NCBI GenBank assembly: GCA_938040315.1
Contig: CALHQW010000006.1
Span: forward strand, 1,113-65,112
DNA length: 64,000 bases
Source: an uncultured bacterium
GTDB taxonomy: Bacteria > Hydrothermota > Tepidihabitantia > Tepidihabitantales > DTDR01
Direction: 5' to 3'
This document shows positions 3,046 through 39,155 of this stretch, one piece after another. Numbering within the stretch: the stretch's first letter is position 1; each line of letters opens with the position of its first letter. The translations under genes and the position numbers were made by a program. Below the pieces are notes generated by a model that saw nothing but the letters and a program-made list of their open reading frames with translations, had not been told where the DNA came from and ran no database searches.

Positions 3046-5790
3046 GTGCGCTTTCTTTATCGGATTACCGATAGTAGTGAAGGAGTAATTAAGAAGGTCT
3101 TTCAAGAGCTTCTTAATTTTTATCCCAAAGATACTAAGAATGATTTTTCAAAAATTTATCATTTTGGTAGTAGTGGATTACAGAACCTTTTTGCTTCTCT
3201 TATTTTTGGTAATTTGATAAAGCCAAACTCATTTATTCCGCCCCATTTTTTCACCTTAAAAGAATTTGCTTTAACTATTTTGGAAAGAGAAGGAATATTA
3301 AGAGATTATAAGATAATTAATAATAGTTTAAAGCCAATTATTATTTTAAATCTTTTAGAGGAAAAAGAAAAAGAGAAAGTTAGTTTTGGTTATAGTGTTA
3401 TTCTTTCCGAATTTATTAGTGAAATCAAACAATATTATTATGAAGAAGATATAAAGGATAACTTTTTGAAAAAATTAGAAATCTATCCCCAGGCTTATGA
3501 GAATTTAGAATTTGCCTTTAAGATAAAAGAAAGATATGAAGAATATTTAAAGAAAAATAGATTTTTAGATGAAGAAGATTGTCAGTATTTAGCAAATAAG
3601 ATAATTAAAGAAAAGAAGATTAGTTTTCCTTTTTTGGTGATTAATGGGTTTATTGACTTCACTAATTTAGAGAAAAATTTAATTTCTACTTTGATAAAAA
3701 ATAGTGAATATACTTTTGTCCTTTCTTTGGTGGAAGAAAGTAAAACTTTTGATTTTTATCTATCCTGTGGTGATTTTACCCAGATTGAATATCAAAAGAA
3801 TTCTTTTTCCAAAGAGGATTTTTTAAAATCACCGATTTATACCTATTCAACCATTGAAGAAGAGATTGAAGGGATTTTAAAAAGAATAAAATTGCGCCAT
3901 TTTAAGAATGAAAAGGATTTAGGTTCAGTAATTTTAGTTTCTCCTAATTTAAAAAAATATTGTTATATTTTAGAAAGAATCTTTCGGCGACTTGATTTAC
4001 CTTATGGAATATTCAAAACCTTAAAATTAAAAGACCTACCGCCTTTTTCCTTTTTAATCGATGTTTTGAAAACAATTGATGAGAATTACCCTCGTTTAAA
4101 AACTTCTTTAATTTTTTCTTTGCCCTATTTTGGAAAATTTTCTTCCGAAACAAAAAAATATATAAATTACTTATCAAAAATGGCAAGGGTGATTTATGGG
4201 AAAAGTGATTGGCTTTCTTTAAAAGATGTTCTTTTAAAAACTAATGATGCTAAAATAAAGGAACTCTTTAAAAAAGGAATAATTGATAGGGTAATGAGAG
4301 ATATAAAAAAATTTTTTGACCTAACTGAAAATTTAATAGAAAATAAGAGAACTTTAAGCGAATTTGTTTTTGGTTTTCGAAAATTTCTTGAAGAATTAAA
4401 ATTTCTAAAAGGAAAAGATTACGGAGAGATTATTTATGAGGCGCTTTTAAAATTTTACGAAATTTTATCTAACTTAGAAGATTTTAATATTCCGATTGAT
4501 TTTCCTAAATTTATTAAGATTATTGATTACCATTTCTCTTATATTCCAGTGAGAATTGAAAAAGAGTTTTCCGGAATTAAAGTAATTGATCTCCACGATT
4601 TAGTAATTTGGGATTTTGCTTTTTTGAAAGATTATGAGTTTTATCTTTTTGGTTTAGTGGAAGAAGATTTACCTTCTCATTATCGTCCAGAACCATTAAT
4701 TCCCGAACATTTGAAAAAGGAATTTAATCTACCCAACTCAGACCTTCATCTTTTTCGAGAAAAGAGTTATTTATACTCCTTTTTAAAAACCGCTTATAAA
4801 AATTGTTATCTTTCTACCCATAATTATGAAAATGAAAATCCGGTATTACTGACACCCTTTTTAGAAGGCAAGAAAATAAAACCAAAAGAGTTAGAGCAAA
4901 TTTTAGGAGTAGAAGAATTTTCAATATTAAAAGGGGAAAGAGAACTTCCTTTCTTTAATATAAAAAAGACCGATATTAATTTAGAAAACTGGGCAACAAA
5001 AGAAAAGCCCCTTTCCATAACGGACTTGGTAAAATATCTTAAATGTCCTTTTCAATTCTATTTAGAAAAAGTGTTGGGACTTTCCTTAGAAGAAGAAAAA
5101 TCAGTAGCAATTGAAAAATGGGAATGGGGAAGGTTGGTCCATTCAGTAATGCAAAAACTTTATAAAGATAAAAAAGTTCCTGAGATTAATGAATTAGAAA
5201 AAGTAATTAAAGAGAAATTAGAGGAGGCAATAAGAGAGGAAGTTAGTTTTGAAATTTTACCAATTTGGCAAGATTTTATTAATAAATTATTTAATGAGAA
5301 AATAATTCCTCTGGTTTTAAAAGTTGAAGAAACTTTGCGAGAAAAGGGGTTTTTACCTTGGCCAGAAAAGATGGAATATTCTATTGAAGGCGAAATAATT
5401 GACGGGATATATTTAAAAGGAAGAATTGACCGAATTGATAGAAATGATAAAAATCGAAGCGTTTTTATAATAGATTATAAAACCACAAAGGAAAAACCTT
5501 TTTCTTTAAGAGAGATGGAAAAGGAAAAAGATTTAATCCAAATTGTTGCTTATGCCTCTTTATGGAATAGATTATCTGATTTAAAATATGAAAATTTGGG
5601 AATATATTATTTACCGGAAGCCAAATTGAAGGTGCCAAAGGAAAAAGAATTGAAAGGAATGGAGGAATATCTTTTAGTGACAATAAAAGAGGGTGTAGAA
5701 AGATTAAGAAGAGGTGATTTTTCGGTTGATAATATAGATGAAAATAAATGCTATATGTGTAATTATCAATTTCTTTGTGAAAGGAGATAA
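3046..5790 (+). CDS. addB: ATP-dependent helicase/deoxyribonuclease subunit B (AddB/RexB-type: inactive helicase-like N-terminus, C-terminal PD-(D/E)XK nuclease with a 4-Cys Fe-S cluster)
   Basis: C-terminal GRIDRIDRN...IIDYKT nuclease motif, plus Cys ligands (CPFQFY ... KCYMCNYQFLCE). 914 aa. Sits immediately upstream of addA. GTG start. Confidence 0.8.
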   Translation: MRFLYRITDSSEGVIKKVFQELLNFYPKDTKNDFSKIYHFGSSGLQNLFASLIFGNLIKPNSFIPPHFFTLKEFALTILEREGILRDYKIINNSLKPIIILNLLEEKEKEKVSFGYSVILSEFISEIKQYYYEEDIKDNFLKKLEIYPQAYENLEFAFKIKERYEEYLKKNRFLDEEDCQYLANKIIKEKKISFPFLVINGFIDFTNLEKNLISTLIKNSEYTFVLSLVEESKTFDFYLSCGDFTQIEYQKNSFSKEDFLKSPIYTYSTIEEEIEGILKRIKLRHFKNEKDLGSVILVSPNLKKYCYILERIFRRLDLPYGIFKTLKLKDLPPFSFLIDVLKTIDENYPRLKTSLIFSLPYFGKFSSETKKYINYLSKMARVIYGKSDWLSLKDVLLKTNDAKIKELFKKGIIDRVMRDIKKFFDLTENLIENKRTLSEFVFGFRKFLEELKFLKGKDYGEIIYEALLKFYEILSNLEDFNIPIDFPKFIKIIDYHFSYIPVRIEKEFSGIKVIDLHDLVIWDFAFLKDYEFYLFGLVEEDLPSHYRPEPLIPEHLKKEFNLPNSDLHLFREKSYLYSFLKTAYKNCYLSTHNYENENPVLLTPFLEGKKIKPKELEQILGVEEFSILKGERELPFFNIKKTDINLENWATKEKPLSITDLVKYLKCPFQFYLEKVLGLSLEEEKSVAIEKWEWGRLVHSVMQKLYKDKKVPEINELEKVIKEKLEEAIREEVSFEILPIWQDFINKLFNEKIIPLVLKVEETLREKGFLPWPEKMEYSIEGEIIDGIYLKGRIDRIDRNDKNRSVFIIDYKTTKEKPFSLREMEKEKDLIQIVAYASLWNRLSDLKYENLGIYYLPEAKLKVPKEKELKGMEEYLLVTIKEGVERLRRGDFSVDNIDENKCYMCNYQFLCERR

Positions 5791-10303: not shown

Positions 10304-10775
10304 ATTTCTTTGTGATTTTATGCTCGGTAAATTGGCAAAATATTTGAGGATGTTTGGTTTTGATACTAAATATGAAAAAGGAATAGATAAAATAAAAATG
10401 GAATTTATCGCTAAAACCGAAAATAGAATAATTATCACAAGAAATAGTTATTATAAAGAGAAAGAAAATTGTTTATTCTTAGAGACGGATAATCCTAAAG
10501 AGCAGTTAATCATTGTTCTTGATAAGTTTAATTTATATGAGAAAATAAAGTTAGCGACCCGTTGTTTAATTTGTAATGAGTTAGTAAAAAGAGTAGATAA
10601 AAAAGAAGTGAAGGGTAAAGTTCCTTATTATGTTTATCAGACAAAAGATGAGTTTAGTTATTGTCCAATTTGTCAGCGAATTTACTGGGCTGGAACTCAT
10701 TATAAAAATATGAAGGAGTTTTTAGAAAAAATAAAAAATGCCGGGGGCCGGAGTCGAACCGGCACGGACTTTTAA
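10290..10775 (+). CDS. Mut7-C RNase domain (DUF82/PF01927) protein with a C-terminal zinc ribbon
   Basis: N-terminal KFLCDFMLGKLAKYLRMFGFDT is the Mut7-C/DUF82 signature. C-terminal CLICN...CPICQ. The last roughly 12 codons read across tRNA-Leu on the opposite strand, with no earlier stop. Confidence 0.6.
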   Translation: MEEIKFLCDFMLGKLAKYLRMFGFDTKYEKGIDKIKMEFIAKTENRIIITRNSYYKEKENCLFLETDNPKEQLIIVLDKFNLYEKIKLATRCLICNELVKRVDKKEVKGKVPYYVYQTKDEFSYCPICQRIYWAGTHYKNMKEFLEKIKNAGGRSRTGTDF

Positions 10776-10826
10776 TAGTCCAGCGGATTTTAAGTCCGCT
10801 GCGTCTTCCAATTCCGCCACCCCGGC
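10739..10826 (-). tRNA. tRNA-Leu (anticodon UAA) with a long variable arm, about 88 nt
   Basis: Manual fold: acceptor GCCGGGG/CCCCGGC, D-arm GCG..CGC, anticodon stem GCGGA/TCCGC with loop CTTAAAA (anticodon TAA), long variable arm GGACT-ATTAAA-AGTCC, T-arm GCCGG-TTCGACT-CCGGC, discriminator A. No encoded CCA. Confidence 0.85.
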
Positions 10827-22772: not shown

Positions 22773-22846
22773 GGGCGGTTAGCTCAGTTGGTTAGAGCGT
22801 CGGTCTCACATACCGAAGGTCAGAGGTTCAAGTCCTCTACCGCCCA
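22773..22846 (+). tRNA. tRNA-Val (anticodon CAC)
   Basis: Manual fold: acceptor GGGCGGT/ACCGCCC, D-arm GCTC-AGTTGGTTA-GAGC, anticodon stem TCGGT/ACCGA with loop CTCACAT, T-arm AGAGG-TTCAAGT-CCTCT, discriminator A. Confidence 0.85.
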
Positions 22847-31123: not shown

Positions 31124-33961
31124 ATGACTCAAAACAATTATATTTTTATTAAAGGAGCAAGAGAACATAATTTAAAAAATCTTACTTTAAAAATTCCTCG
31201 AAATAAAATGGTAGTTATCACTGGAATTTCTGGTTCAGGAAAGTCTTCTTTGGCTTTTGATACTATTTATGCCGAAGGGCAAAGAAGATATATTGAATCT
31301 CTTTCTTCTTATGCTCGACAGTTTTTGGGAGTATTAGAAAAACCGGATGTTGATCAGATTGAAGGTCTTTCGCCAGCGATTGCTATTGAACAACGAACCG
31401 CAGCCAAAAATCCTCGTTCCACTGTTGGCACCGTTACCGAAATTTATGATTATTTAAGAGTTCTTTTTGCTCGAATTGGTACTCCCTTCTGTCCTTACTG
31501 TAATAAAGAAATTGCTCACCAAACCTTAGACCAAATAATTGATCAAATAACTCTTTATCCTCCAAATACAAAGTTAATAATATTAGCACCAGTAATAAGG
31601 GGAAGAAAGGGAGAATATCAGAACCTTTTAGAAAAAATTAAGAAAAAGGGATTTTTGAGAGTAAGGGTAGATGGGAAAATTTCTGAAATTTCTGAAGTTA
31701 AAAATTTAGAAAGATATAAAAAACATAACATTGAAATCCTTATTGACCGTTTAATTTTAACTAAAGAAAATCAGAAAAGATTAGTTGAATCAGTAGAATT
31801 AGCATTAAAAGAGGGACAAGGGTTATGTGTAGTAATTTTTGATGAAAAAGAGGAAAAAATTTTTTCTGAAAAATTTGCCTGTGTAGACTGTGGTTTTTCC
31901 TATGAAGAAATTTCCCCCAGACTATTTTCTTTTAATTCTCCTTACGGAGCTTGTCCGAGTTGTCATGGATTAGGAACAAAAATGGAAATTGATCCAGAAA
32001 GATTGATTGTTGACCCTAATCTCTCAATTAATGAAGGAGTAATTGAAGTATGGGGTGAACCAAAAGGTAGGTGGTTTACTTCTCTTTTGAAGGCATTAGC
32101 AAAAAATTATAATTTCTCTTTAAACACTCCTTGGAAAAAATTACCGAAGGAAGTAAAAAAAATAATTCTTTATGGTACTAATGAAGAAATTCTTGTGGAA
32201 CATGAAAGATGGGACGGAACTCGTTATCATTTTTATGAAGAATTTGAAGGTGTGATTCCCCATTTAATGCGGATTTATCAAACAACCGAATCAGAAAGTA
32301 CTCGAGAATGGATCGAGCGGTATATGTCAATTTTACCTTGCCCAGAATGTTTGGGAGCTCGGCTTAAAAAAGAAGCCTTATCAATTAAAATTGCTGGTTA
32401 TTCTATTTATGATGTTTGTAAGTTATCTATTAAAGAATGTTATCTTTTCTTTGATAATCTGAAAATGAAGGAACAAGAAAGAAAAATTGCTGGTGAGTTG
32501 ATTAATGAAATTAAAAAACGGTTAAATTTTTTAATTGAAGTTGGTGTTGATTATTTAACTTTGGAAAGAAGAACAGATACTTTAGGTGGCGGTGAAGAAC
32601 AAAGGGTAAGATTAGCCACACAAATTGGTTCAGGTTTGGTCGGTGTTACTTATATTTTAGATGAGCCAAGTATTGGTTTACATATGAGGGATAATCATAA
32701 ATTGATTCAAACATTATTAAAGTTGAGAGATTTAGGAAATACAGTAATTGTGATTGAGCACGATCGCGACACAATTTTAAGTAGTGATTATGTGATTGAT
32801 TTAGGACCGGGTGCTGGTGAAAGAGGTGGTTATGTAGTTGCGATGGGTACACCTTCCGAAATAATGAGAAATCCGAATTCTTTAACCGGAGCTTATTTAA
32901 TAGGTAAAAAAGAAATTCCTTTACCAAAAAAGAGAAGAATCCATCAGGGAAAATTTTTGGTGGTAAAAGGTTGTAGTGAAAATAATTTAAAAAATGTTGA
33001 TATTTCCATACCTTTAGGACTATTTGTCTGTCTTACCGGAGTGTCTGGTTCAGGTAAAAGTACCTTCATGAATGATATTCTTTATAAAGCGTTGGCAGAA
33101 AAGTTTTATGGTTCGAAAGAGAAACCAGGAAAATTTAGAGAGATTATTGGTTGGGAAGAGATTGATAAAGTAATTAATATTGATCAATCACCAATTGGTC
33201 GAACTCCTCGTTCTAATCCGGCAACATATACTAATGTTTTTACACCGATAAGAGAACTTTTTGCTCAGACAAAAGAAGCCAAAATTCGGGGTTATCCTCC
33301 TGGGAGATTTTCTTTTAATGTTCGAGGGGGACGATGTGAAGATTGTGGTGGCGATGGAATAAAAAAAATTGAAATGCATTTTTTGCCAGATGTTTATGTG
33401 ACTTGTGAAGTTTGTAAGGGAAAGAGATATAATCGGGAAACTTTAGAAATAAAATATAAAGGGAAAAATATTTATGAAGTTTTAGAGATGACTGTTAATG
33501 AAGCATTAGAGTTTTTTTATAATATACCACCAATCCGAAGAAAATTGGAGATGTTAAGAGATGTTGGATTGGGTTATATAAAATTAGGACAACCGGCAAC
33601 AACTTTATCGGGTGGCGAAGCGCAAAGAGTAAAATTGGCAAGGGAATTATCCAAAATTGGTACGGGAAGAACTTTGTATCTTTTAGATGAGCCAACTACT
33701 GGTTTGCATTTTGAGGATATTCGGCTCCTTTTGATTGTCCTTAATCGCTTAGTAGATAAAGGAAATACGGTGGTTGTCATTGAACATAACTTAGAAGTGA
33801 TAAAGTGTGCTGACTGGATAATTGATTTAGGACCAGAAGGAGGTGAAAAAGGTGGATATGTTGTTGCTTGTGGTCCTCCCGAAGAGATTGCCAGATGCGA
33901 AAAATCTTATACTGGAAAATTTCTGAGAGAAGTATTAAGAAGGCACGGAGTCAAAATTTAG
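31124..33961 (+). CDS. uvrA: Excinuclease ABC subunit A
   Basis: Two ABC ATPase modules ([32 protein letters not shown] twice) and zinc-finger Cys clusters. 945 aa. Confidence 0.95.
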
Positions 33962-34738
33962 ATATTTTTCACAAATCCTCTCAATTTTTTCTGCTTTATA
34001 AGTAGATAAATTGATTTCTATCAAAACTCCTTCTATTTTAAAATCTGAATCTGCCGGATTAAGACGGTAATTAATTCCGTAGAGAAGTCTTTTTAAAGAG
34101 TCCTCAATTTTCATTCCTAAAACAGAATTTATTGCTCCGCACATTCCCACGTCAGTAATATAGGCAGTTCCTTTTGAGAGAATTTCTTCGTCAGCCGTTG
34201 GAATATGGGTATGGGTTCCTAAGACAGCACTTACTCGGCCATCCAAAAAATATCCCATTGCTTTTTTTTCAGCAGTCGCTTCTGCGTGGAAATCAATAAT
34301 TATAATTCCTTTTTCATTCATTTTTGTTAATTCCTCGTCAATTCTTCGGAAAGGACAGTCTACCGGTTTCATAAATACTCTACCAATAAGATTTATTACT
34401 ATTACTGGTTTTTCTGATTTTTTAGTTAGATAAACACCCTTTCCAGGGGTACCAAAAGGATAATTTAGTGGTCGGATTATATTTTTTTCTTTTTCTAAAT
34501 AAGGGATAATTTCTTTTCGGTCAAAACTATGGTCGCCAAGAGTGATACAGTCAATTCCTAAGGAAAAAAGTTCTTCAGCAATCTTTGGAGTTATTCCAAA
34601 TCCTCCGGCGGAATTTTCACCATTGGCGATAATAAAATCAGGTTGGTATTTATTTTTTAAAATTTTTATTCCTTTGGCGAGCGCTTTTCTTCCTGCTTCG
34701 CCACAAATATCGCCCAAAAAAAGAATTTTATAACCCAT
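33935..34738 (-). CDS. ymdB: YmdB-family metallophosphoesterase (2',3'-cyclic-nucleotide phosphodiesterase, TIGR00282-like)
   Basis: [28 protein letters not shown] and GDHSFD motifs. Overlaps the rny 3' end by 11 nt, as in the Bacillus rny-ymdB pair. Confidence 0.8.
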
Positions 34739-36254
34739 AGATTAAGTTAATTTTGATTTCTCCTAAGAAAGGTAATTCATTTCTTATCCTTTGTTGAAGA
34801 GTTCTTATTAATAAACTTCCCTCTTTTTCATTAATTTTATCTGTATTTAGTAAAATCCGAATTTCTCTTCCTAATTGGAAAGCATAAGCTTTTTTTACTG
34901 AATGCGTTTCTTCACAAAGTTCTTCAATCTTGGTTAACCTTTTGAAAATTTCGTCAAATTTAATTGTTTTACCAGCTCCGTATAAATGAGAAAGGTAATT
35001 AGCCATTGAAATTAAATAACTTTCTGGATAAGAAAAATCAGATGATTGATGGTGATTAGCAATTGCTTGAATTACAATTTCATTTTCGCCAAACCTTTTG
35101 ACAAAATTAGCACCGATTAATTGATGGGGTAAATTTTCTTGGTTAGGAAGAATTTTTCCAATATCATGCAGAAGACCCGCACGTAAAACGTTTATTGGAG
35201 AAAAGCCGAGATTAAGGGCTAAATTTTTACCAATAAGGGCTACTTCTTTAGAATGGGCAAGAAGATTTTGACCATAAGTAACATAAAAATTCATCTCGCC
35301 AATAACTTTTATCAACTCTTTAGGAAAATTTTCAATTCCCAATTCATTACAAGCACTTAAACCAATTTGAAAAGTCTTTTCATCAAACTCCATTAATATT
35401 TTTTGGAAGGTTTTTTCAATAATTTCAGTGGTAATTTCTTCGTTATTCATAATTTCATTAATTAATAATTTAGCGAGCATCCTTCTTTTAGGATGAAAAG
35501 AAAAAATAAAAATCTTCTTTGGAGTATCGTCAATAATAATTTCTGTACCGGTAAGATTTTCAATCAAAAGCACATTTCGCCCTTTCCGACCAATTAATTT
35601 TCCTTTAAACTCTTCATTAGGAATTTCTATCCAGCAAGCCGTATGCTCTTTGGCTGAAGGCAAACCAATTTTTTGGCAGGCTTCTAATATAATTTTTTGA
35701 GCAATAACCTTGACCTCTTCATGGACTTTTTCTTTTATTTTCTTTAATTCTTCAAAATGCTCATCCCAAACTTCTTTTTCAAAAGTTTTTTTTAATTCTT
35801 CTTTTATTTCTTTAATACTTAGGTTAGAGATCTTTAATAATCGGTTTTGATATTCATTTATTAATTTATCAAGATGTTCAATTTTTATTTTATAAACCTT
35901 TTCGGTAGTGAGAAGTTCATTTTCTTTTTTCTGAATACGATTTAACTGAGAAGAATATTCTTTTTCCTTTTTGTGATAAAAACTAATAAGTTCTTCTAAT
36001 TCTTGCTTTTTTTGTGTTAATTCCTTTAATTTTTCTTCATAGATTTTTAAAAATTTTGTTTTTTCTGTTTCTAATTCTTTTTTAATTTCTTCAATTAATT
36101 TTTCTTCTCTTTTTTTATTTTCCTCTTGGAGGTTCTTTTTATACTCATCGAGTTTTTGTTTTTCTTTTTCATATTTTTTCTGCCAAAAATTTTTGGTTAA
36201 TAAATAAGTAAATAAAAAACATAAAAATAATAAAAATAAAAATAAATACTCCAT
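34728..36254 (-). CDS. rny: Ribonuclease Y
   Basis: N-terminal TM segment, long coiled coil, KH domain (GKLIGRKGRNV), and HD domain (LLHDIGK). 508 aa. Confidence 0.85.
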   Translation of the reverse strand: MEYLFLFLLFLCFLFTYLLTKNFWQKKYEKEKQKLDEYKKNLQEENKKREEKLIEEIKKELETEKTKFLKIYEEKLKELTQKKQELEELISFYHKKEKEYSSQLNRIQKKENELLTTEKVYKIKIEHLDKLINEYQNRLLKISNLSIKEIKEELKKTFEKEVWDEHFEELKKIKEKVHEEVKVIAQKIILEACQKIGLPSAKEHTACWIEIPNEEFKGKLIGRKGRNVLLIENLTGTEIIIDDTPKKIFIFSFHPKRRMLAKLLINEIMNNEEITTEIIEKTFQKILMEFDEKTFQIGLSACNELGIENFPKELIKVIGEMNFYVTYGQNLLAHSKEVALIGKNLALNLGFSPINVLRAGLLHDIGKILPNQENLPHQLIGANFVKRFGENEIVIQAIANHHQSSDFSYPESYLISMANYLSHLYGAGKTIKFDEIFKRLTKIEELCEETHSVKKAYAFQLGREIRILLNTDKINEKEGSLLIRTLQQRIRNELPFLGEIKINLIYGL

Positions 36255-36277
36255 CTTTTCCCCTTTTTAAAACTTAA

Positions 36278-36454
36278 GGCTCTCCGTAGCATCGTGTTGG
36301 CGATGGTCTCTGAACCCTAAAAATAAAAATTGGCGTCCTAAGGTGGGTTCTATCTTTGGAGGAGAACCTCCTGATAGTAAGCACCATCGGACATCCATTA
36401 TTTAGGTGTTGGCTCAAGACCATATTTTGCCAATCACGAATACTACCGAGAGCC
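36278..36454 (-). ncRNA. ssrS: Candidate 6S RNA (SsrS-like): about 177-nt rod-like RNA with a long closing stem, central bubble and terminal hairpin. Strand is tentative.
   Basis: A GC-rich island (about 47% GC against about 30% background) in an intergenic position. The ends pair as GGCUCUCGGUAG.../...CUACGGAGAGCC, extended by CGUGAUUGGC/GCCAACACG and AUGGUCU/AGACCAU. On the minus strand one position is a G-U pair where the plus strand would have A-C. The internal hairpin is CUAUCAGGAGGUUCUCCUCCAAAGAUAG. It lies directly downstream of zapA, as E. coli ssrS does. The 67-aa ORF 36274-36477 called here is most likely spurious. Confidence 0.45.
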
Positions 36455-36718
36455 TTTATTATTTGCCAATTTTTCAATGAGCAAATCTAATCTTTCTTTT
36501 AAAACTTTTTCTTTTTTTTCATAGGTGTCAAGTAATTCTTCAATCAGATTAAGGGAACCAAAAAAAATTATTTCGCTAAAATCTAAATAAGGAAACTTTT
36601 CTTTTATTTCTTTAACTTTGACTTCTAAAAGATTAAATAAATTTTTTAAATATTCTTCACTCTTATCACTTTTGATTTCATACACCTGATCTAAAAATTG
36701 AAGACGATAGATATTCAT
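36443..36718 (-). CDS. zapA: Cell division protein ZapA
   Basis: MNIYRLQFLDQVYEIKSDKSEEYLKNL...KFPYLDFSEI aligns with B. subtilis ZapA (IYGQQFTIVGDESKSHMRYVA...NPYLDINKLAV). Confidence 0.75.
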   Translation of the reverse strand: MNIYRLQFLDQVYEIKSDKSEEYLKNLFNLLEVKVKEIKEKFPYLDFSEIIFFGSLNLIEELLDTYEKKEKVLKERLDLLIEKLANNKGSR

Positions 36719-36912
36719 ATTTTAAGTTTACTAAAACTCTTTAATTTTTCAATAATAAATTTTAATTTTTTTAAACTTTTATCGATTTTCTCTTGATAAT
36801 TTGCTAACGCTTTTTTTAGATTTTTATTTTCTTCTTCTAAACTTTCTTTTTCTTTTAAAATTTTTTCCACCAATTCTTCTAAGGTTTTTAATTTTTTTTC
36901 AATTTCGTTCAT
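36715..36912 (-). CDS. Small coiled-coil protein (possible ZapB-like cell-division factor)
   Basis: 65 aa, all heptad-repeat coiled coil (LKTLEELVEKILKEKESLEEENKNLKKAL). Translationally coupled between pheT and zapA. Confidence 0.35.
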   Translation of the reverse strand: MNEIEKKLKTLEELVEKILKEKESLEEENKNLKKALANYQEKIDKSLKKLKFIIEKLKSFSKLKI

Positions 36913-39155
36913 TTTTTTCTTAATTGAACAGGAAAGTTACTTTCAATAGAAGAAATAATTTCGTTTAATAATTTTTCGATTTCTTCTTTAGTGTAGGGCC
37001 GTTCTTGGGGATAGAAAAAAAGACGGATACCCAAGTTTCTTTTGCCTGGCGGTAGCGGTTGCCCAACAAAAGAATCAAAAATTAGAATTTCTTTCACAAA
37101 GGAAAGGTAATTTTTTTTAATCCAATTAATTATCTCCTGGGCACAGAAATTCTCTTCGGTGATAAAAGATAAATCTCGATAAATAGGTAAAAAAATGGGA
37201 AGGGGCTGATAAATTTTTTCTTTTGGTAAATATTGATAAAGTTTTTCTAAATCTATTTCTGAGTAAAAAATTTCCTCTTCAATTTTATAAGGAAGAAGTA
37301 AATTCTCACTTATTTTTCCTAAATAACCAATCTCATCGTCTTTATAAACAATGGCAATGGAAGGAAAGGAAGAGAAAAAGGGATATTTTTTTAATAAATA
37401 ATCAATTTCCAAAATATTTAAAAAATTAAAAATCTCTTCAATAATTCCTTTTAAATCAAAATAGTCTACCTTTTTAGGTTTCGTATCAAAATTAATTGGT
37501 AAATTATTACCGGTTAACGCCAGAGCTAATAGGTATTTCTCTTTTTTATAAACTTTACCGATTTCAAAAATTCTTAAATCTCTATTATTAAAAGAATGAT
37601 TGTGGGCGATTACCGATAATAAAGAATGAATAAGGGTATTTCTTAAAACCGCTAATTTTTCATTTAAAGGGTTTAACAATTGAATACTCTCTTTTATATT
37701 TTCGGGCAAGAGACTAATAGTAATTACCTCATAAAAACCTCTGCCGATAAGAAAATTTCTTAGGTTATTTAAAAAAGCAGTAAAAGGTTGGATGCCACCA
37801 ATTTTTTTTATTTTTAGATAAAAGAAAGAAGGAAAATTTTCATAGCCATAATAGCGAGCAATCTCTTCTACCAAATCAATTGGCAATTTTAAATCTTGGC
37901 GCCAACTTGGCGGTTGGTAAATAAGTTCTTTCTCATTAGTTTTAATAATTTTACCACCAATTTTCTTAAGGATATTCAAAAGATAATCTACAGAAAAATT
38001 AATTCCTAAAATTCTTTGGGGATAATTGAAAGGAAGAGTAATCATTTCTTTTTCTAATTCTTTTTTAATTATTTTTCTTTCTTTAATAATTTTTCCATCA
38101 CTCCAGCGGGCTATTAAGTTAGCAGCATAATCAGCAAAATAATTTAAATTCTCATAATCAATTCCTAATTCAAATCTTCTGGCTGCTTCGGTTCTTAAAT
38201 TTAGAAAATTAATTCCTTCTCTTATTGCTTCTTGGGAGAAAAAGGCACATTCCAAAAGCACCTCTTTGGTATTTTCAATAATTTCGGTATTTTGACCACC
38301 AATTATTCCGGCAATTGCGATTACTCTTTTACTATCAGCAATACAAAGAACCTTTTCGGAAACTTCTCTTTCTATACTGTCAATAGTTTTAATTTTTTCT
38401 CCCTTTTTTCCTTGTCGGACATAAATTTTATTTCCAAATATTCTTCTTAAATCAAAGGGATGTAGGGGTTGACCAAATTGGATAAGGGTATAATTAGTCG
38501 CATCTACAACATTATTTACTGGTCTTAATCCGGAAAGGAAAAGGCGCCATTGATAAAAGAGGGGAGAGGGTTTTATTTTTAAATCAATAATTTTAGTTGC
38601 GATATAAATTGGACATCTTTCTAAATCTTCAATATTTATTTCAATATCATTCTTTTCTTCTATTTCATATAGATTATTGTTTACTTCGGGTAAAATTAAA
38701 TTTCTATTTGTAAAACAAGCAATCTCACGAGCAAGACCAAAAACAGAAAAGAGGTCTGCTCGATTAGGAGTAATTTCTACTTCCAAAAATAGATTATCAA
38801 GATAATTAAAAACCTTCTCACCTTCAACACCCTCTTCAAAAATTAAATAAACTTCATTAGGAAAAGATAAATCACTACCTTTTAATAATCGCTTTTCTTT
38901 TAAATGATAACCAACTTTTTCTCCTAATTTCGCTGGAATATTCTCCTTAATTACAAATTCCTCATTACCAATCTTTAAGATGGTTTTATTATTTTCTTTT
39001 TCAACAATTGTTGCTAAGAGATAATAAGAAAAATCTTTTAAATAATTATAAAAATTAACTATCTCAATCCCCTTTTTTTCTAATAAATCTAAAAGTTCTT
39101 TTTCGTTAATCTTTGGCTCTAAAAATTCATTTAGCCAATTCAAAGTAAGTTTCAT
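36909..39155 (-). CDS. pheT: Phenylalanine--tRNA ligase beta subunit
   Basis: N-terminal MKLTLNWLNEFL and the tRNA-binding, B3/B4, B5 and FDX-ACB domain order. 748 aa. Confidence 0.9.
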   Translation of the reverse strand: MKLTLNWLNEFLEPKINEKELLDLLEKKGIEIVNFYNYLKDFSYYLLATIVEKENNKTILKIGNEEFVIKENIPAKLGEKVGYHLKEKRLLKGSDLSFPNEVYLIFEEGVEGEKVFNYLDNLFLEVEITPNRADLFSVFGLAREIACFTNRNLILPEVNNNLYEIEEKNDIEINIEDLERCPIYIATKIIDLKIKPSPLFYQWRLFLSGLRPVNNVVDATNYTLIQFGQPLHPFDLRRIFGNKIYVRQGKKGEKIKTIDSIEREVSEKVLCIADSKRVIAIAGIIGGQNTEIIENTKEVLLECAFFSQEAIREGINFLNLRTEAARRFELGIDYENLNYFADYAANLIARWSDGKIIKERKIIKKELEKEMITLPFNYPQRILGINFSVDYLLNILKKIGGKIIKTNEKELIYQPPSWRQDLKLPIDLVEEIARYYGYENFPSFFYLKIKKIGGIQPFTAFLNNLRNFLIGRGFYEVITISLLPENIKESIQLLNPLNEKLAVLRNTLIHSLLSVIAHNHSFNNRDLRIFEIGKVYKKEKYLLALALTGNNLPINFDTKPKKVDYFDLKGIIEEIFNFLNILEIDYLLKKYPFFSSFPSIAIVYKDDEIGYLGKISENLLLPYKIEEEIFYSEIDLEKLYQYLPKEKIYQPLPIFLPIYRDLSFITEENFCAQEIINWIKKNYLSFVKEILIFDSFVGQPLPPGKRNLGIRLFFYPQERPYTKEEIEKLLNEIISSIESNFPVQLRKK

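Follow-up and report, generated by a model that had tools for sequence, protein, structure and literature searches.

6S RNAs form a widespread family of small RNAs that bind and inhibit bacterial RNA polymerase. In E. coli, 6S RNA (SsrS) is a ~180-nt rod whose closing and apical arms are separated by a large central bubble flanked by GAGCC and GGUUC, with the 3′ side of the bubble harboring a long self-complementary hairpin; the RNA is processed from a precursor that extends into ygfA. For 6S-1 (BsrA) of B. subtilis, whose gene is not known to reside beside zapA or rny, the pRNA reads 5′-GUUCGGUCAAAACU, with a G initiating opposite a C of the 5′ bubble strand. A rod-with-bubble architecture is likewise found in 6S-Flavo (RF01685) and actinobacterial Ms1, and RNA polymerase binding has been described for Ms1 and 6S (PMC9130861). 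With respect to genomic context, a zapA-6S-ygfA synteny has been reported to be widespread, especially in Gammaproteobacteria (PMC9788540). In the E. coli genome (NC_000913), ssrS is located 41 nt past the zapA stop codon on the same strand and is followed by fau/ygfA, confirming the zapA-ssrS order to which an earlier note on the DNA analyzed here had appealed.

This DNA, hereafter the window, is a contiguous stretch of 64 kb from a candidate division WOR-3 bacterium. With a probability of roughly 0.93, we assign its positions 36277-36454 on the minus strand to the 6S RNA (ssrS) gene of this organism. The earlier note had proposed a 6S RNA between zapA and rny, and a full-length family match, compensatory base changes and synteny all speak in favor of that proposal. 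Searching the region 36150-36600 with Rfam, we obtained a match to RF00013 (6S/SsrS) on the minus strand only (36277-36454; 43.2 bits, E = 1.6e-7), with the alignment covering model positions 1-187 of 187. The extent originally suggested, 36278-36454, was essentially right, the covariance-model match beginning at 36277. From the set of models named in that note for comparison (6S, SRP, RNase P and tmRNA), only 6S was recovered, its 43.2 bits falling 3.2 bits below the gathering score of 46.4 bits, which is a curation cut-off and not a biological feature. SRP, RNase P, tmRNA and 6S-Flavo gave no match in 36150-36600 even at E ≤ 10, and other Rfam families reached nothing better than E = 0.4 on either strand of this region. 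Given its score, the copy in the window is missed by a default Rfam scan, which reported two tRNAs and nothing else above the gathering score across all 64 kb; the 6S match surfaced only when an E-value threshold was applied to the local region. The motifs flanking the bubble, UGAGCC and GGGUUCA, align to the RF00013 consensus (5′ uGAgCC and 3′ GGuUCa) and are invariant in the clade to which the window belongs. The element also forms the GC-rich island that had been pointed out, with 46.1% GC as compared to 30.4% in the whole window and 19-31% in flanking 150-nt windows. It is an ordinary member of the 6S family and leaves the known working principles of 6S RNA unchanged. Its value for annotation is that candidate division WOR-3, an uncultured and under-studied lineage from hot springs, thereby gains a confidently assigned 6S RNA; in the literature, we found no paper mentioning both 6S RNA and WOR-3.

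Features of the window, with the parts of the 6S RNA listed from its 5′ to its 3′ end (nt, position within the RNA)
Feature	Coordinates	Strand	Position in RNA or gene context	Evidence and details
tRNA-Leu(UAA)	10739-10826	minus		Rfam, above gathering score
tRNA-Val(CAC)	22773-22846	plus		Rfam, above gathering score
pheT	36909-39155	minus	first gene of tightly packed run	B3_4, B5, tRNA_synthFbeta and FDX-ACB domains
ORF65, 65-aa coiled-coil ORF	36715-36912	minus	between pheT and zapA	only sub-threshold coiled-coil matches
zapA, 91 aa	36443-36718	minus		Pfam PF05164, 44.4 bits
6S RNA (ssrS homologue), 178 nt	36277-36454	minus	5′ end at 36454	RF00013, MFE z, model R1, clade covariation
Closing arm, 5′ strand	36411-36454	minus	nt 1-44	pairs with nt 139-177; 35 pairs, 4 with compensatory double changes in the clade
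Predicted pRNA template	36408-36423	minus	nt 32-47	start at the position aligned with E. coli U44
Central bubble, 5′ side, 13 nt	36398-36410	minus	nt 45-57	AACACCUAAAUAA; consensus structure
Apical arm	36331-36397	minus	nt 58-124	21 pairs; UUCU terminal loop at 36363-36366; MFE and consensus structure
Central bubble, 3′ side, 14 nt	36317-36330	minus	nt 125-138	consensus structure
Closing arm, 3′ strand	36278-36316	minus	nt 139-177	MFE and consensus structure
Spacer, 22 nt	36255-36276	minus		A/U-rich; AAGGGG ribosome-binding site of rny
rny (RNase Y, 508 aa)	34728-36254	minus		TIGR03319, 373 bits; Pfam RNase_Y_N, KH and HD
ymdB-family metallophosphoesterase	33935-34738	minus	11-nt overlap with rny end	PF13277, 351 bits
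uvrA	31124-33961	plus	convergent with ymdB	

In silico folding of the minus strand yielded a minimal free energy (MFE) of -87.3 kcal/mol, as compared to an average of -44.3 for dinucleotide shuffles (z = -10.4; none of 200 shuffles as good). The resulting structure is one long irregular hairpin, or rod, in which a large central bubble sits between the closing arm and the apical arm, as in E. coli SsrS. In the MFE fold, the outer closing helix pairs GGCUCUC-G-GUAG with CUAC-G-GAGAGCC around a single G/G 1x1 loop, the next one CGUG-A-UUGGC with GCCAA-CACG, leaving one bulged A, and the inner one AUGGUCU with AGACCAU, extended by UGAGCC with GGGUUCA; the closing arm is interrupted by the G/G loop, two single-base bulges and a 5/1 internal loop. 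The tip of the apical arm is formed by CUAUC-A-GGAGG-UUCU-CCUCC-AAA-GAUAG. Every helix described in the earlier note, as well as its terminal hairpin, is present in this fold, with the closing helix comprising about 35 pairs instead of the ~30 bp first estimated. Within the bubble, the AACACC portion of the 5′ side is invariant in the clade and recurs in the 6S RNAs of Hippea alviniae and a further uncultured bacterium (L021; see below). The 3′ side is U-rich and the most variable portion of the RNA; it is also A/U-rich and lacks a long self-complementary hairpin of the kind seen in the E. coli bubble.

As for the coding strand, a single G-U pair had been claimed to be specific to the minus strand. 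The strand was correctly called; the number was not, the window copy containing three such pairs (RNA positions 13/164, 42/141 and 62/120) that would turn into C-A mismatches on the opposite strand. All clade members retain the pairs at 42/141 and 62/120 unchanged. Since these invariant pairs and an alternation between U-A and U-G fit the minus strand only, the RNA is encoded on that strand.

To trace the evolution of the element, we gathered relatives by Rny-based searches, resulting in a WOR-3 clade of hot-spring metagenome-assembled genomes (MAGs) and metagenome contigs. This clade is isolated: in a collection of 5.8 billion clusters, Rny sequences are 69-100% identical within it, the next best homologues (including another lineage labelled WOR-3) drop to about 35-36%, and none fall in between. 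ZapA as a probe reached the same clade only (at least 71% identity). In every clade member, a full-length RF00013 match lies between zapA and rny, with scores of 49.0 bits (L001, above the gathering score), 45.8 (L002), 42.2 (L003), 41.1 (L014), 40.8 (L004), 39.2 (L013) and 37.2 bits (L012). A second WOR-3 lineage (L015), whose Rny is 34% identical, displays the same gene order and carries a 49.8-bit 6S RNA between zapA and rny. Seven of the nine WOR-3 copies, including that of the window, thus lie under the gathering score (37-46 bits), with L001 and L015 passing it; that is, the Rfam threshold overlooks most copies in the clade.

Ten clade sequences could be aligned unambiguously using MAFFT (91% mean column identity), and RNAalifold derived a consensus of 56 pairs from them. 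Standard base pairs fill 560 out of 560 pair cells and five pairs exhibit changes on both sides, values that none of 500 column shuffles reached; when the 3′ partners were slid by 1-3 columns, 39-46% pairing and 0-1 compensated pairs remained. The five compensated pairs (numbered by alignment columns) are 2/180 (G-C to A-U), 6/176 (U-A to C-G), 13/169 (U-A, U-G and C-G), 23/161 (U-A to G-C) and, in the apical arm, 71/114 (G-C to A-U, in L003), although in a clade this shallow (~91% identity) covariation represents few independent events. At the DNA level, the RNA is the best conserved part of the locus (87-96% identity to the window, as compared to 78-90% for zapA and 75-88% for rny). Adding the 6S RNAs of L015, Hippea alviniae (L019) and L021 in a model-guided alignment, from which antisense rows had been removed, revealed many pairs with two to three pair types and few mismatches, bearing in mind that an alignment fitted to a model leans towards structure. 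A MAFFT alignment including these outgroups was set aside because it misplaced the distant sequences in their 3′ halves. Covariation among orthologous zapA-downstream regions, proposed earlier as a check, is therefore borne out in ten WOR-3 sequences, with compensatory changes and no broken pair: the pairing of this RNA is kept by selection.

As a reciprocal test, a covariance model (R1) was built using five sequences, all of them from the clade of the window, and searched with filters off. R1 identified a single locus within the 64-kb window and recovered outgroup 6S RNAs at the exact coordinates given by Rfam, namely those of L015 (44.1 bits, E = 4e-10; 49.8 bits in Rfam), Hippea alviniae (41.6 bits, E = 2e-9; 72 bits in Rfam) and L021 (27.3 bits, E = 1e-5; 69.5 bits in Rfam). 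These three RNAs each fold on their own as long closed hairpins (z = -7 to -8.5) and have the 5′ bubble sequence GCCAACACC in common with the window's clade. The Hippea alviniae and L021 RNAs hence resemble that of the window in being detected by R1, in carrying GCCAACACC and in belonging to a wider neighborhood upstream of rny-ymdB. They differ in scoring far above the gathering score, in having no zapA directly upstream and in that a 5-formyl-THF cyclo-ligase gene (in L021 also rarA) precedes rny, whereas in the window rny follows directly.

By homology, the RNA is predicted to act on RNA polymerase and to template pRNA synthesis. Its rod with a large central bubble would mimic an open promoter and sit in the active-site cleft of the RNA polymerase holoenzyme containing the housekeeping sigma factor, sequestering the enzyme when growth declines. 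During outgrowth, the 5′ bubble strand would serve the polymerase as template, with synthesis predicted to start opposite C47 and to yield 5′-GUUGGCUCAAGACC; this short pRNA would unzip the inner closing arm, refold the RNA and free the polymerase. Based on the RF00013 alignment, the pRNA from C47 would read 5′-GUUGGCUCAAGACCAU, and small-RNA reads derived from it would begin with 5′-GUUGGCUCAAG. In that alignment, UGAGCCAAC of the window stands opposite UGAGCCGAU of E. coli, and the predicted pRNA has a GGCUCA core in common with the E. coli pRNA, 5′-AUCGGCUCAGGGGACU. The predicted start, a G opposite a C, resembles that of B. subtilis 6S-1. When nt 34-47 were blocked in silico, the bubble collapsed via A/U-rich pairs and a four-pair hairpin formed in the released 3′ strand, a refolding qualitatively like that of an E. 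coli control, but weaker.

The RNA is embedded in a tightly packed run of genes on the minus strand, in which the neighbors named in the earlier note, zapA and rny, are confirmed by their family matches (PF05164, 44 bits; TIGR03319, 373 bits). Start and stop codons overlap at pheT/ORF65, ORF65/zapA and rny/ymdB (by 4-11 nt), with ORF65 overlapping both of its neighbors by 4 nt. As in E. coli, zapA is located immediately upstream of the 6S RNA on the same strand, and with RNase Y and YmdB the host resembles B. subtilis rather than bacteria with an RNase E-based system. Two differences from E. coli concern the flanks: the RNA in the window overlaps the last 12 nt of zapA instead of starting 41 nt after its stop codon, and it is followed after 22 nt by rny instead of fau/ygfA. 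The 5-formyl-THF cyclo-ligase gene (ygfA/fau) is not found immediately downstream of the window 6S RNA and is absent from the gene run. Given the published zapA-6S block, its recurrence here is corroboration, not discovery.

Other phyla provided further arrangements. The Hippea alviniae locus (L019 3239-5563) contains 6S, cyclo-ligase and rny-ymdB, the 72-bit 6S RNA residing just upstream of the cyclo-ligase gene; L021 (1-5542) has the order pheT, 6S (69.5 bits), rarA, cyclo-ligase, rny; and in an Omnitrophota MAG (L017 3313-5551) the cyclo-ligase gene is directly upstream of rny-ymdB. Together, this suggests a mosaic neighborhood of pheT, zapA, 6S, rarA, ygfA, rny and ymdB across phyla; in WOR-3, the order resembles this neighborhood minus the cyclo-ligase gene. 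Three things are thereby linked, i.e. the published zapA-6S-ygfA block, the ygfA-rny-ymdB adjacency in other phyla, and the WOR-3 order without ygfA in which 6S abuts rny, and such linkage could be of use when divergent 6S RNAs are sought by synteny. In Caldisericia and Thermoanaerobacter, the rny loci had the order recA-recX-rny and no 6S RNA.

Since the RNA starts within the codons of zapA and ends 22 nt before rny (14-28 nt in orthologues, the spacer being A/U-rich), there is no room for a promoter or terminator of its own. A scan of the locus for intrinsic terminators found none, and inspection of the zapA 3′ end by eye revealed no convincing promoter. The only nearby sigma-70-like match (TTGGCA-18-TAGTAT, 36469-36440) was rejected as a promoter, as the start would fall inside the conserved closing arm. 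With neither signal evident, the 6S RNA is probably excised from the operon transcript. As judged from gene packing, a zapA-RNA-rny co-transcript is plausible, and ribonucleases would cut the 6S RNA out of a pheT-ORF65-zapA-6S-rny-ymdB transcript. Like its E. coli counterpart, it would then probably mature from a longer transcript reaching into the downstream gene. A cut at the mature 5′ end would strip zapA of its stop codon. That the 6S RNA of this clade lacks a transcription unit of its own and is carved from the operon transcript, with its output mechanically coupled to ZapA and RNase Y expression, goes a step further, and we regard it as rather unlikely. If true, the zapA message would lose its stop codon upon 6S release, cleavage at the 3′ end of the RNA would generate the 5′ terminus of the mRNA for rny, 6S output would be tied to a cell-division protein and to the cell's main endoribonuclease, and RNase Y may process its own upstream neighbor. 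Work on B. subtilis failed to demonstrate that RNase Y has a specific role in 6S maturation (PMC10578484), and a role for the adjacent rny is therefore not to be assumed here. We consider these local peculiarities (overlap with the zapA stop codon, direct adjacency to rny, no transcription signals of its own) mildly interesting.

The same packing lends some appeal to a different interpretation, namely that the structure acts mainly in cis within the operon mRNA and only resembles 6S, either as a 5′ leader controlling or stabilizing the rny mRNA or as a site at which RNase Y processes the transcript or regulates itself. In every clade member, just 14-28 nt separate the end of the RNA from the rny start codon, and this spacer is A/U-rich and single-stranded; a separate promoter or terminator was not seen; and the element sits directly upstream of rny in two WOR-3 lineages, with two Ignavibacteriaceae loci showing only a weak match (31.7 bits, below the gathering score) at this position. 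However, the same family precedes the cyclo-ligase gene or rarA in Hippea alviniae and L021 and fau/ygfA in E. coli, which argues that the RNA is not tied to rny, and the similarity to 6S extends over the full length including the bubble-flanking GAGCC/GGUUC motifs. We therefore deem a mainly cis-acting element very unlikely. The RNA of the window may nevertheless combine both roles, 6S RNA and cis-acting mRNA element.

Hardly any weight attaches to a hairpin element of another kind, be it a mobile element of the miniature inverted-repeat type, an RNA of the plus strand or a member of another structured RNA family (SRP, RNase P, tmRNA, 6S-Flavo or Ms1-like): long imperfect inverted repeats fold on both strands, and the plus strand indeed reached -76.2 kcal/mol (z = -7.4), yet this fold is weaker than that of the minus strand and loses G-U pairs to C-A mismatches, the element occurs once in the 64-kb window and occupies the same syntenic place in every relative, nothing else in Rfam matched at E ≤ 0.1 on either strand while the 6S match is confined to the minus strand, and the 6S-like models outside RF00013 (6S-Flavo RF01685 and actinobacterial Ms1) gave no match at E ≤ 10.

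The 6S RNA gene had been described as mis-called as a 67-aa ORF. Such a frame, with a TTG start, is open in the window (36274-36477, minus strand), as a mechanical ORF; of a gene call there was no sign, the exact sequences of the 67-aa and a 43-aa ORF being absent from about 15 billion predicted proteins, a collection that does contain the neighboring ZapA from the same contig. That the region encodes a 67-aa protein, or the products of inner 43-aa or 44-aa ORFs, is practically refuted already, as the 67-aa frame carries at least one stop codon in nine out of nine orthologues, no other frame is open across the element, no Pfam or NCBIfam match was obtained, and substitutions track base pairing and not codon positions. 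Conservation of the ORF, which the earlier note had singled out for inspection, is thus not observed. Interrupted in orthologues and without family match or protein record, the 67-aa ORF is a chance ORF, and this spurious frame can be removed from consideration.

The claimed overlap with the stop and last codons of zapA, in turn, is real. RNA nt 1-12 (36443-36454) read GGC UCU CGG UAG and thereby encode the Gly-Ser-Arg-stop end of ZapA, i.e. the last three codons plus TAG lie inside the RNA, and in ten out of ten clade members these 12 nt likewise comprise the zapA 3′ end with its TAG. In L013 (2802-2813), ZapA ends in Asp-Ser-Gln instead of Gly-Ser-Arg, and a compensatory change in the 3′ strand re-establishes the RNA pair. 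It is thus the RNA, and not the protein, that appears to constrain the last codons of zapA, suggesting that RNA pairing dictates the C-terminal codons of ZapA. As a minor curiosity, the overlap with the stop codon poses a question about how the RNA matures.

Several neighboring observations concern more distant loci. In Ignavibacteriaceae (L005 2724-2935 and L011 2724-2935), the gene order is pheT, coiled-coil ORF, ZapA-sized ORF, a 212-nt weak 6S match (31.7 bits, fold z = -4.4) and rny. R1 did not detect this candidate, and its Rfam score is below the gathering score; the element may be a divergent 6S RNA that standard annotation would miss. Locus L016 has the order pheS, pheT, small ORF, zapA, a 195-nt gap, rny and ymdB, and its zapA-rny gap (3806-4000) contains neither an Rfam nor an R1 6S match nor a stable fold (z = -0.4), so that here the 6S RNA is either encoded elsewhere in the genome or too divergent to be detected. 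Likewise, the gap upstream of the cyclo-ligase gene in the Omnitrophota MAG (L017) yielded no Rfam or R1 6S match and no stable fold (z = -0.8). Near an HU gene of the same MAG (2716-2873), sub-threshold Thr_leader (37.4 bits) and L20_leader (31.8 bits) matches overlap on opposite strands and are probably chance matches in A/T-rich sequence. Finally, a gene is called at the position of ORF65 in L013, L014, L015 and L016, a small ORF takes this place in the WOR-3 relatives, in L016 (86 aa) and in Ignavibacteriaceae (107 aa), and ORF65 may represent a ZapB-like partner of ZapA.
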